Below are positions 15,001 to 18,000 of a stretch of 30,291 bases of DNA, in pieces. Numbering within the stretch: the stretch's first letter is position 1; every line of letters begins with the position of its first letter. The stretch is from positions 1 to 30,291 of the IMG/VR virus record IMGVR_UViG_2737471839_000025. One strand, written 5' to 3'. The position numbers were made by a program. Origin of the DNA: a virus. Taxonomy: Duplodnaviria; Heunggongvirae; Uroviricota; Caudoviricetes.

Positions 15001-18000
15001 CTAAGTCCGGCCAAACTCCGCGACAAGTGGACCCAACTCGAAATCAACCGTAACAAGCAACAGGCTGGCGTGACAGCTGGAAAACCAAAACTCGACCTGA
15101 CAAACACTGACTGGATTTACGGGGTGGATTTATGAAAAACATCGCCGCACAGATGGTTAACTTTGACCGTGAGCAGATGCGTCGGATCACCAACAACATG
15201 CCGGAACAGTACGACGAAAAGCCGCAGGTACAACAGGTAGCGCAGATCATCAACGGTGTGTTCAGCCAGTTACTGGCAACTTTCCCGGCGAGTCTGGCTA
15301 ACCGGGACCAGAACGAACTGAATGAAATCCGCCGCCAGTGGGTTCTGGCTTTCCGGGAAAACGGGATCACCTCGATGGAACAGGTTAACGCAGGAATGCG
15401 CGTAGCCCGTCGGCAGAATCGACCATTTCTTCCATCACCCGGGCAGTTTGTTGCATGGTGCCGGGAAGAAGCATCCGTTATCGCCGGACTGCCAAACGTC
15501 AGCGAGCTGGTTGATATGGTTTACGAGTATTGCCGGAAGCGAGGCCTGTATCCGGATGCAGAGTCTTATCCGTGGAAATCGAACGCGCACTACTGGCTGG
15601 TTACCAACCTGTACCAGAACATGCGGGCCAATGCGCTGACTGACGCGGAATTACGACGCAAGGCTGCCGATGAACTGACCTGTATGACAGCGCGAATTAA
15701 CCGTGGTGAGACGATACCTGAACCAGTAAAACAACTTCCTGTCATGGGCGGCAGACCTCTAAATCGTGTTCAGGCGCTGGCGAAGATCGCAGAAATTAAA
15801 GCTAAGTTCGGACTGAAAGGAGCAAGTGTATGACGGGCAAAGAGGCAATTATTCATTACCTGGGGACGCATAATAGCTTCTGTGCGCCGGACGTTGCCGC
15901 GCTAACAGGCGCAACAGTAACCAGCATAAATCAGGCCGCGGCTAAAATGGCACGGGCAGGTCTTCTGGTTATCGAAGGTAAGGTCTGGCGAACGGTGTAT
16001 TACCGGTTTGCTACCAGGGAAGAACGGGAAGGAAAGATGAGCACGAACCTGATTTTTAAGGAGTGTCGCCAGAGTGCCGCGATGAAACGGGTATTGGCGG
16101 TATATGGAGTTAAAAGATGACCATCTACATCACTGAGCTAATAACAGGCCTGCTGGTAATCGCAGGCCTTTTTATTTGGGGGAGAGGGAAGTCATGAAAA
16201 AACTAACCTTTGAAATTCGATCTCCAGCACATCAGCAAAACGCTATTCACGCAGTACAGCAAATCCTTCCAGACCCAACCAAACCAATCGTAGTAACCAT
16301 TCAGGAGCGCAACCGCAGCTTAGACCAAAATCGGAAGCTTTGGGCTTGCCTTGGTGACGTTTCGCGTCAGGTTGAATGGCATGGTCGCCGGCTGGATGCA
16401 GAAAGCTGGAAGTGCGTTTTTACAGCAGCATTAAAGCAGCAGGACGTTGTTCCTAACCTTGCCGGGAATGGCTTTGTGGTAATAGGCCAGTCAACCAGCA
16501 GGATGCGCGTAAGCGAATTTGCGGAGCTATTAGAGCTTATACAGGCATTCGGTACAGAGCGTGGCGTTAAGTGGTCAGACGAAGCGCGACTAGCTCTCGA
16601 ATGGAAAGCGCGATGGGGAGATCGGGCTGCATGACTATCAAATCAAATACGCCAGCACACGATAAGGACTGCTGGCAAACGCCGCTTTGGCTTTTTGATG
16701 CACTGGATATTGAGTTTGGATTCTGGCTGGATTCGGCAGCGAGCGACAAAAATGCTCTGTGTGCTCACTGGCTAACTGAGGCCGACGACGCGCTCAATTC
16801 TGAGTGGGTAAGCCACGGTGCAATCTGGAATAACCCACCGTACAGCAATATCAGGCCGTGGGTGGAAAAAGCCGCTGAGCAGTGCATACAACAGCGACAG
16901 ACGGTAGTTATGCTTGTGCCAGAGGATATGTCAGTCGGATGGTTCAGCAAGGCTCTGGAGAGTGTCGACGAAGTTCGCATCATCACTGATGGACGGATTA
17001 ATTTTATCGAACCATCGACAGGGCTGGAGAAGAAGGGAAACAGCAAAGGCTCCATGCTGCTGATTTGGCGACCGTTCATCAGTCCTCGACGAATGTTTAC
17101 TACTGTATCCAAAGCGGCATTGATGGCGATCGGGCAGGGCGTCAGGAGGGCGGCATGAGGCGACAGCGAAGAAGCATCACCGACATCATCTGCGAAAACT
17201 GCAAATACCTTCCAACGAAACGCTCCAGAAATAAACGCAAGCCAATCCCAAAAGAATCTGACGTAAAAACCTTCAATTACACGGCTCACCTGTGGGATAT
17301 CCGGTGGCTAAGACATCGTGCGAGGAAAACAAGGTGATTGACGCGATGATTTATTCGGGGCTATATTCCTCAAACGCCAGCAAAATCTGGCGTCGGGATT
17401 GGCGTCCTGGATAGAGACCGCGACAGATACACGCCGCGAGCGTGTTTTTTATTGTCGTATGCACGCGCACATCTGAATTATGGTGGGCTGTGTGGGGGCG
17501 GAGAGATCCGCGCCGGTCGGTTTCCCGGTTACGCCAACCCTGCACAGTTCACCACCAGACGATTGGCGTCGTCGGTGGTGAGTTATTAAGAAACCACCAG
17601 AGGGCGTCATTATGACAACTCAAATTTCTGTTGAAACTCTCTCCCCGATCACCCATAACCAGATTCCTGTTATTACCACCGAACTTTTGGCGCAGCTTTA
17701 CGGCACTGAGCCGGTGCGTATTCGCCAGAATCATCATGAGAACAAAGTACGCTTCGTTGAAGGGAAACACTTTTTCAAAGTTGTTGGTAATGACCTTAAA
17801 GAATTGCGGGTAGCTTTAAACTACTCACAAAATTTGCGGGTTACTTTAAGTAACTCACAAAATTTGCAACCATCTTTAAGAGGGTTACAAATTTCCCCGA
17901 AAGCCCGCTCCCTCATCCTCTGGACAGAACGCGGAGCAGCACGCCACGCCAAAATGCTCGAAACCGATCAGGCGTGGGAAGTGTTCGAAAAATTGGAAGA

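Follow-up and report, generated by a model that had tools for sequence, protein, structure and literature searches.

A self-complementary stem-loop element in the variable ORF6N loop of a phage antirepressor-type gene

Why should a phage gene carry three tandem palindromes inside its reading frame, and which of their properties has been kept? The question is raised by a 30,291-nucleotide (nt) stretch of DNA from a virus of the Caudoviricetes (IMG/VR record IMGVR_UViG_2737471839_000025, positions 1 to 30,291), the whole of which is called the window. In its ant gene, an antirepressor-type coding sequence on the + strand (17612..18346), three 30-base-pair (bp) units lie in frame and encode similar decapeptides. 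The original prediction, made from the window alone, described three 30-bp tandem coding repeats with palindromic cores in a roi-like gene and took them for a probable array of protein-binding sites; the exact sequences that it quoted were found to be present, in units placed at 17804-17893. At the level of sequence comparison, the homologues show the 30-bp units to be copies of an ancestral stem-loop element in the variable ORF6N loop, and they show that selection or another maintaining process acts on its self-complementarity.

Palindromic units in the ORF6N loop

Unit 1 (TTGCGGGTAGCTTTAAACTACTCACAAAAT) occupies 17804..17833, unit 2 (TTGCGGGTTACTTTAAGTAACTCACAAAAT) 17834..17863 and unit 3 (TTGCAACCATCTTTAAGAGGGTTACAAATT) 17864..17893, each being 10 codons long on the + strand. 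The dyads GTAGCTTTAAACTAC, GTTACTTTAAGTAAC and AACCATCTTTAAGAGGGTT were located at 17810-17824, 17840-17854 and 17868-17886 in units 1, 2 and 3, respectively, and the spacer TCACAAAATTTGC was found between them at 17825-17837 and 17855-17867. The hairpin of unit 1 took up 17804-17830 in the fold of 17800-17834, and that of unit 2, which has perfect 7-bp inner arms, took up 17833-17861; unit 3 makes a 35-nt palindrome at 17860-17894, the top-scoring palindrome of the whole 30-kb window (score 12). Tandem Repeats Finder reported a period of 30 at 17804-17867 (2.1 copies, 85% matches) and also at 17823-17880 (1.9 copies, 78% matches), and a repeat search returned dyads with 19-nt arms at 17828-17846 and 17848-17866 (84% complementary) and with 17-nt arms at 17860-17876 and 17878-17894 (88% complementary). 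A degenerate pattern of the unit occurred three times in the window compared to 0.01 expected, all at the array, and no further copy with 3 or fewer mismatches was found elsewhere in the 30 kb. A scattered operator was rejected for want of any other unit copy in the window, and a dispersed type of palindromic repeat (repetitive extragenic palindrome, REP; miniature inverted-repeat transposable element, MITE; or Rickettsia palindromic element) likewise had no second copy there.

The inner arms of units 1 to 3 read GGGTAGC, GGGTTAC and AACCATC, respectively, and each unit is self-complementary nonetheless, while an outer motif, TTGC...CTTTAA...ACAAA, is common to the units. The arms end outwards in AAATTT, a palindrome in its own right, and every unit is therefore flanked by an 8-nt direct repeat, AAATTTGC, whose + strand copies with their self-palindromic arm ends were read at the unit borders at 17830..17837 and 17860..17867. 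These direct repeats make slippage and unequal recombination between alleles possible. When 35-mers of units 1, 2 and 3 were folded as RNA, free energies of -8.0, -11.0 and -8.9 kcal/mol were obtained, respectively, and the same segments of the + strand folded as DNA gave -2.3, -5.5 and -8.3 kcal/mol. The z-scores of the unit folds against shuffles were mostly -3.4 to -6.5; unit 1 as + strand DNA did not depart from its shuffles (z -0.97).

Homologues were collected from species-representative genomes and viral contigs, which gave 160 loci with 111 distinct loop segments, and distant ones were reached by tblastn on phage records. The lengths of the 111 segments fit 1, 2, 3, 4 or 5 units, and most homologues have a single one. 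Three units are present in the window and in Sakai, four in phage 1717, where unit 2 occurs in exact duplicate, and one in P27, Min27, PA2 and the second ant allele of Shiga toxin 2a (Stx2a) phages. Independent expansions are seen in Escherichia, Pectobacterium, Symbiopectobacterium, Xenorhabdus and Acinetobacter, and the arrays mix unit types that are found singly elsewhere (VALNY, VTLSN, PSLRG, LSLRE and VSLRH), joined at AAATTTGC borders. Because the approximately 110 distinct homologues mostly carry a single unit, the basic element, as far as can be read from them, is one palindrome with arms of about 10-16 bp, and the array is secondary.

Nearly every single-unit homologue had a palindrome at the same codon position, in the coding sequence for the variable loop of the ORF6N domain, with a different sequence. 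The single-unit palindromes of P27 and Min27 are AAATTTGCGAGTAACTTTTAGTTACCTGCAAATTT and ACCCGAAACAATCGGGT, respectively, and those of more distant relatives are TTTGCGACTGACTTAAAGTCAGTCGCAAA in Acinetobacter, CCGAGCAGAGGGTCTTAAAGACCCTCTGCTCGG in Roseospira, TTGCACAGAGTGACTAATAGTCACTCTGTGAAA in Chromatium and ACAACATCCAAAATTTGGATGTAGT in Lactococcus phage TP901-1. Palindromes in this place were found in Salmonella, Pectobacterium, Photorhabdus, Acinetobacter, Chromatiaceae and Roseospira, and, in phage records, in Lactococcus TP901-1, Bacillus J5a, Lactobacillus PLE2, Azospirillum Cd and Salmonella S135; the palindrome was weak or absent in Clostridium phiCT19406C, Brevibacillus Abouo and Lactococcus D6890. 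The range thus takes in Enterobacterales, Acinetobacter, purple bacteria and several phages of Gram-positive hosts, and the centres are A+T-rich (TTTAA, AAT or AAAATTT). An array of sites for one sequence-specific protein would not predict this pattern, in which the conserved feature is intrastrand complementarity and homologues carry different palindromes at the same codon.

In 165 of 182 units, the palindrome was centred on codon position 2. With the centre at this codon position, paired codons are reverse complements of each other and the residues that they encode covary: V was matched with N, Y, H or D, T with S, S with R, L with Q or E, and P or T with G. Among 90 distinct units, positions 3-13 from the centre were mostly 70-100% Watson-Crick, position 10 reaching only 51%, and two to four pair types were seen at each position. 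The pairs alternated in orientation, with GC in 43 and CG in 47 units at position 11 and TA in 43 and AT in 44 units at another. In a set of 53 distinct units, which had been picked by palindrome score and are related by descent, 87.7% of cells were paired, compared to 58.0% after shuffling and 30-40% when the partner was slid; both sides had changed in 11 of the 12 pairs, and the covariation score was 0.722 compared to 0.229 in shuffled units, a value of 0.722 being reached by none of 500 shuffles.

Because of the selection and kinship of the 53 units, two less biased tests were added, one on the position of the palindrome in the whole open reading frame and one by synonymous recoding. The best palindrome of the entire reading frame lay inside the loop segment, which makes up 15.5% of its length, in 82 of 99 non-redundant frames. 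In 108 non-redundant homologues, the mean score of the best loop palindrome was 9.3, compared to 4.8 after synonymous recoding and 4.9 after shuffling of codon order, and 72 of these sequences exceeded at least 99% of their own synonymous recodings. Synonymous sites in the repeats, whose free evolution was the outcome that the original prediction had set against itself, are therefore constrained. The nucleotide sequence of the hairpin varied more than its surroundings, with 56% identity where the flanks had 73% and 76% where they had 84%. The best 39-nt window of the loop had a mean fold energy of -12.4 kcal/mol compared to position means of -2.4 to -8.8 kcal/mol elsewhere in the gene, a comparison that favours the loop, its value being a minimum over many windows and the others coming from fixed windows.

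Since the palindromes exceed their synonymous recodings, there is a constraint on the nucleic acid besides that on the protein. Very probably this constraint is on self-complementarity and not on sequence; it would strike synonymous and non-synonymous sites alike and act as a structural constraint across the protein family. Judged from the covarying residues, this is a case in which nucleic-acid structure shapes a protein sequence. No published description of such an element was found among the top-ranked titles and abstracts of the literature.

The ant gene and its RNA control region

In the 244-residue product of the gene, ORF6N (PF10543) was matched at residues 12-115 (E 7.4e-19, 68 bits, cut-off 27.8) and P22_AR_C (PF10548) at residues 144-216 (E 1.2e-23, 83 bits, cut-off 22.4); relative to the ORF6N profile, the protein has about 20 additional residues at the repeats, the length of two extra units. 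The ant region of VT2-Sakai is 98.7% identical to this coding sequence, and the gene is annotated as ant in VT2-Sakai, 1717 and Min27, in which the next gene is roi. By its domains it is an ORF6N + P22_AR_C antirepressor gene of the Ant/AnrP type, the antirepressor role being assigned by similarity. It is not the roi-like gene of the original prediction, since roi is the next gene, and neither domain of the HK022 Roi family (Rha-like N-terminal, KilAC/ANT) was found in the repeat-bearing protein. A predicted model of the protein was unusable (mean predicted local distance difference test score, pLDDT, 39.8), and no solved relative was found in the PDB.

Upstream of ant, all on the + strand, a promoter scan found a promoter-like site, TTGACG-18-TATATT, at 17338..17367, in a position that matches PisrK of the Gifsy-1 isrK locus (PMC4825925). 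It is followed by an isrK-like small RNA with a terminator hairpin at 17374..17450 (Rfam RF01394, 74.7 bits, gathering threshold (GA) 50), of which the terminator-like hairpin was placed at 17429-17445 by a terminator scan. This RNA is overlapped by a c4-a1b1 target element at 17361-17413 (RF03163, 45.9 bits, just under the GA of 46.7). A C4-type antisense RNA at 17476..17559 (RF01695, 66.7 bits, GA 45) is contained in an orf45-like open reading frame of 45 codons at 17452..17589, and the end of the ant transcription unit has an intrinsic-terminator-like hairpin with a T-run at 18363..18384, found by the repeat search and the terminator scan. The order promoter, isrK-like RNA, C4-type RNA in a 45-codon frame and ORF6N antirepressor gene is the layout of the Gifsy-1 isrK-orf45-anrP locus and resembles P1/P7 c4-ant, although the Ant protein of P1 presumably belongs to a different domain family. 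A Salmonella homologue has 79% identity in the N-domain. In 23 of the 40 homologous loci scanned, C4 or the C4-like sRNA-Xcc1 was found directly upstream.

In the paper on the Gifsy-1 isrK-orf45-anrP locus, orf45 is described, an RNA switch gates the translation of the antirepressor AnrP, and the activity of AnrP is shown (PMC4825925). The transcript level there rose approximately eightfold, from 230 to 1771 units, once translation was opened (PMC4825925), and the amount of message in the Gifsy-1 locus therefore depends on translation. A text search found neither a palindrome nor a stem-loop mentioned in that paper; 'hairpin' occurs four times, and none of the passages displayed was about anrP (PMC4825925). 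The studies on Gifsy-1 and on P1/P7 are about RNA switches at the start of translation, unlike the element in the loop. The small RNA 24B_1 of Stx phages was considered as a partner of the array and rejected, because its d_ant target is a different ant gene, located downstream of R.

The approximately 110 bp after the array, 17906-18015, encode 35 residues and have 87-94% nucleotide identity with otherwise dissimilar genes of Yersinia and E. coli phages, and the two halves of ant, N- and C-terminal, find their matches in different sets of phages; as judged from these matches, 17906-18015 is a mosaic junction region. Two tandem ant genes are carried by some Stx2a phages, as in Stx2_EH0337 at 250-615 and 881-1555 of its sequence. 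The first copy has a 3-unit array and is shortened to 121 amino acids, ending after ETDRA, and the second is full-length with one different unit (LRTSQRGLQI); by its arrangement, the pair looks like a product of recombination inside the conserved block after the hairpin. Pseudogenised copies of ant, which were sought for survival of the dyad without translation, proved to be recent truncations only.

Explanations for the paired arms

A stem-loop in the ant/anrP message that is sensitive to translation and acts in cis is the most likely explanation of the element, at a probability of approximately 35%. Ribosomes on the message would melt the helix; once translation stops, which in this locus the isrK/C4-type RNA switch directly upstream would bring about, helices of -8 to -13 kcal/mol would form. 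A formed helix would mark the message for inactivation, either through cleavage by a double-strand-specific RNase or through RNA polymerase pausing and Rho termination, as a fail-safe against a protein that would be harmful if made at the wrong time, and additional units would supply additional helices. The element is in a transcribed gene directly behind the isrK/C4 RNA control, and single units fold as RNA well beyond shuffles. A helix this short forms readily in the cell as RNA, and cruciforms with arms of approximately 13 bp rarely extrude in vivo. The element also resembles cis-acting RNA structures in coding regions, such as the replication elements of RNA viruses and RNase III sites in bacterial mRNAs, in having a compensatorily conserved helix over a reading frame with synonymous constraint; it differs from them in that it has no G-U preference and no Rfam match and that the helix dictates the peptide through non-synonymous sites.

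Several observations weigh against such a helix in the message. Mismatches at positions 3-14 were G:T or T:G in 47 cases and A:C or C:A in 51, counts that a few lineages dominate, and a helix of the sense RNA would be expected to tolerate G-U and purge A-C. Pairing often continued to the very centre, positions 1 and 2 being paired in 59% and 79% of units, respectively, and an RNA loop does not require this. For all three units together, the predicted fold of the sense RNA was a mixed structure instead of one hairpin per unit, and the array folded better as the antisense strand than as the sense strand (-40.4 compared to -29.2 kcal/mol), an advantage that reflects alternative pairings between units. 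These three features, equal mismatch classes, pairing to the centre and better antisense folding, do not favour a sense RNA helix and fit copying or recognition at the level of DNA. Among the Gram-negative loci scanned, the palindrome is also found where no C4 RNA was detected, in Acinetobacter and other loci; it is therefore tied to the ORF6N domain rather than to the C4 switch, and the link with the switch is not general. The palindrome is degenerate in approximately 10-15% of homologues. No Rfam 15 family was matched at the array beyond chance level, the nearest being rivX (21.6 bits, GA 100) and CbSR14 (18.6 bits, GA 172), and no paper describing the element was found among the top-ranked titles and abstracts.

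Two further ways in which the array might act on expression were examined. No intrinsic terminator was flagged in the array by the terminator scan, and none of the units is followed by a T-run. Units 2 and 3 are each preceded, at a distance of a few bases, by a formal -1 slippery heptamer, A_AAT_TTG (0 frame; 17829-17866), and the -1 frame after the first one runs into TAA within eight codons. Programmed -1 frameshifting was rejected as a general explanation, as the heptamer is missing from AACAGA-type, TP901-1 and other homologues, and it is probably incidental.

The copying of one arm from the other might by itself account for the pairing. The element would then be a functionless, self-perpetuating quasipalindrome that arose once in a permissive loop and whose arms have been kept matched by template-switch gene conversion during replication, an explanation that we consider somewhat unlikely but a serious rival. 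Conversion would have to be far more frequent than point mutation, the in-frame length would be kept because the protein needs a linker, and the amino-acid covariation and the tandem expansions would be mutational by-products. Strict Watson-Crick pairing with no preference for G-T over A-C, and complementarity that often reaches the centre, fit arm-to-arm copying better than they fit an RNA helix; the loop is also permissive, its peptide being variable in sequence and in length (1 to 5 units), the palindrome has decayed in some lineages, no associated factor or second copy was seen in the window, and the exact extra unit of phage 1717 indicates that replication slippage is active here. Template-switch mutagenesis at quasipalindromes of E. 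coli is alike in that imperfect palindromes in coding sequence have their arms corrected against each other, but no such hotspot is known to be a conserved feature across a protein family. Rickettsia palindromic elements similarly are palindromic DNA tolerated in frame within proteins as an extra loop, but they are dispersed in many copies over many sites, and the ant element is at one homologous codon. What the copying explanation has difficulty with is persistence: the palindrome has stayed at one codon from Gram-positive to Gram-negative phages in which synonymous sites elsewhere are near saturation (third-position identity 0.43-0.52), and this despite the general tendency to delete palindromes. 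Moreover, CGG...TCA, in place of CGA...TCG, could be repaired by two synonymous changes and yet endures throughout a large lineage of E. coli and Salmonella, in which conversion is therefore not efficient, and the analogous coding palindromes in two other regulator gene families of the window suggest a shared cause and not one accident. Alternatively, the site may function as DNA, in duplex or cruciform form: a protein bound to it would block transcription across the gene or modulate it. This is unlikely on present evidence but likewise a serious rival. Either the ORF6N (KilA-N-like) domain encoded by ant itself or a structure-recognising host factor could be the binder, and an operator inside the coding sequence would stay linked to its gene in mosaic genomes, as the ant counterpart of the site reported for HK022 Roi. 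ORF6N is classed as a DNA-binding domain, and one member of the cluster is named KilA-N DNA-binding domain-containing protein; no other conserved dyad travels with the gene, the centres are A+T-rich, and the pairing statistics are symmetric between the strands. There are precedents both in lambda O, which is established to bind dyad-symmetric iterons in its own gene (iterons lie at 14544-14621 here), and in HK022 Roi, which is reported to bind inside roi beside an integration host factor (IHF) site; in agreement with this, roi alleles carry a covarying 13-bp palindrome (CCTGCATTGCAGG or CCTCAAATTGAGG) approximately 10 bp before a conserved IHF consensus. However, the inner arms differ among units of one array and about 12 positions per arm covary, neither of which is needed by a dimer that reads sequence; a binding protein would therefore have to read shape. 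Extrusion of a cruciform with arms of about 13 bp is energetically unfavourable in vivo, no IHF consensus (WATCAANNNNTTR) was found in the ant gene (17612-18346), and antirepressor-type proteins usually act on repressor proteins.

The position of the palindrome, exactly between the variable 5' part of the gene and the conserved 3' block, would also suit a structure that promotes recombination at the mosaic junction. By stalling forks or being cut by structure-specific nucleases, it would drive domain shuffling, with exchange stimulated in the conserved block that follows and with NinG/Rap and RusA encoded just downstream. The nucleotide identity of phage alleles was 0.74 upstream and 0.90 downstream, and identity at synonymous third positions was 0.62 and 0.79, respectively; the 17906-18015 block is common to otherwise different phage genes, the arrays are mosaic in unit type, and the two halves of ant have different relatives. 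The downstream block is also the most conserved in protein (0.94 compared to 0.78), which alone explains much of the contrast, and selection for evolvability is weak and palindromes this short are poor substrates for hairpin nucleases such as SbcCD, so that this explanation appears quite improbable. The view of the original prediction amounts to an iteron-like array bound by one sequence-specific protein, whether for autoregulation, as an auxiliary origin or in a partition-like role. The likeness to the lambda origin is apt in form: lambda iterons are dyad-symmetric units of about 20-30 bp, repeated in tandem within a coding sequence where the protein tolerates what they encode, and vary in unit sequence between related phages, and here the 30-bp phasing makes roughly three helical turns, with a common outer motif inside a coding region. 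But lambda iterons share one recognition sequence, are bound by the product of their own gene and are followed by an A+T-rich region, whereas the ant units vary, within one array and between alleles, at positions that a common site would hold constant, a single unit is usual among homologues, and the host gene is neither a replication nor a partition gene. There is no A+T-rich flank beside the array that could unwind, the approximately 100 nt downstream (17895-17995) being G+C-rich, nor a further copy of the unit in the window, and the phage has its own lambda-type origin in an O-like gene at 14544-14621, with four iterons of about 20 bp (consensus CATCCCCCAAAACGAGGGA). An auxiliary origin or partition-like site was abandoned on these grounds, and the iteron-like explanation as a whole is very improbable. 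Least credible of all is a repeat that matters at the protein level alone, with selection acting on a duplicated peptide of 10 residues and the dyads being incidental. The units are in frame and encode similar decapeptides, and the ORF6N insertion of about 20 residues equals two of them, but the loss of the palindromes on synonymous recoding (4.8 compared to 9.3) contradicts this explanation, the peptides differ widely among homologues while the dyad stays, and the residue pairs follow codon complementarity and no known structural rule.

An analogy from eukaryotic viruses may be drawn as well. Baculovirus homologous regions (hrs) occur in genomes that are rich in bro genes, and Bro-N is usually grouped with KilA-N/ORF6N. 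The hrs are arrays of 2-7 imperfect 30-bp palindromes, and the one consensus quoted for them, GGCCGRCACGTAAAATTCTACGCGTCCGCC, has an A+T-rich centre (PMC2830988). The likeness to the ant array would be an analogy of form only. Unlike the ant element, hrs lie scattered between genes, keep their sequence within a genome and are bound by IE1.

Coding dyads in other regulator genes

The gene after ant, at 18415-19144, is the roi homologue. It has an ANT (KilAC) domain (E 1.3e-33) and aligns with Roi alleles, and in the window it is split by an extra A in the A-run at approximately 18567-18573 (A7 compared to A6 in intact alleles), with a stop further on; in CP-1639, the nearest relative, roi is likewise annotated in two pieces. 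A palindrome, CCTGCATTGCAGG, is present at 18550-18562 and an IHF consensus, AATCAATAACTTA, at 18574-18586. The roi gene of HK022, at 4656-5381 of its record, shares the small covarying palindrome of the Roi alleles and has the IHF consensus at nt 153. HK022 Roi reportedly binds inside roi beside an IHF site. Binding of Roi within its own gene had been mentioned, with low certainty, in the original prediction; this precedent pertains to the neighbouring gene, with its own small palindrome next to the IHF consensus. We infer that the site reported for Roi is the 13-bp roi palindrome. The two cases are alike in that a regulator gene of the Rha/Ant/KilA group carries an internal dyad immediately behind the part that encodes the N-terminal DNA-binding region, and unlike in that Roi is of another family (Rha-like N-terminus and KilAC) and its palindrome is much shorter and forms no tandem array.

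A Rha-like gene of 266 amino acids without a Pfam match was found on the - strand at 3881..4681. It contains a perfect codon-centred palindrome, GGGTTACGAAAATTTCGTAACCC, at 4444-4466, which encodes GYENFVT; most of its homologues in viral contigs have an AAATTTT centre and GYEIFVT. In homologues, the palindrome is preserved by compensatory swaps (GACCTACGAAATTTTCGTAGGTC, ACTACGAAATTTTCGTAGT), for example from GGT TAC...GTA ACC to ACC TAC...GTA GGT. On this comparison, the coding palindrome of the Rha-like gene is the same phenomenon as that in ant, in a second gene family. The more distantly related antirepressor of Bacillus phage Gamma, which has a different N-terminal region, also carries a coding palindrome, GTGGTGGCTTTAACCCACCAC, with a TTTAA centre at nt 224-244 of its coding sequence (SGGFNPPQ), approximately 20 codons before a conserved ...LSERGYAKL block. 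Such phage regulators may commonly have a coding dyad directly behind the N-terminal DNA-binding region. It is possible, although we hold it as a tentative view that is more doubtful than not, that the ORF6N, Rha-like and Roi genes each carry a functional cis dyad, conserved in structure at a fixed codon, that is either an operator or cruciform read by shape or an RNA helix; such a dyad would be inseparable from its gene in mosaic recombination and would dictate the loop residues by codon complementarity in Gram-positive and Gram-negative phages alike, and arrays would tune its strength.

Other palindromes of the window with scores of at least 9 lie at 3366-3391, 9135-9162, 20845-20874, 22775-22806 and 30167-30200, and some of them may be terminators or further coding dyads. 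A palindrome at 1330-1365, TGCTTTTTTATACTAAGTTGGCATTATAAAAAAGCA, contains GCTTTTTTATACTAA, which we take to be the core of the lambda attachment site, and the window probably spans an att site near this position.

If the hairpin of ant is functional, it would be an unrecognised layer of control on antirepressor genes, which control whether a prophage is induced, Shiga-toxin phages and the Gifsy-1 AnrP pathway included, and it would be a rare case outside RNA viruses in which nucleic-acid structure constrains non-synonymous sites across a protein family. Alignments of ORF6N, estimates of the ratio of non-synonymous to synonymous substitution rates (dN/dS) and structure predictions for the loop are distorted by a constraint that does not come from the protein, and variation in the copy number of units could serve as a marker for typing Stx phages. 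If the element is instead a self-perpetuating quasipalindrome, it would represent a natural case in which both arms of a coding palindrome have evolved in concert for a very long time, and template-switch conversion would become a testable evolutionary force. Either way, the like coding dyads in the Rha-like gene and in roi suggest a general feature of phage regulators that are widely shuffled.

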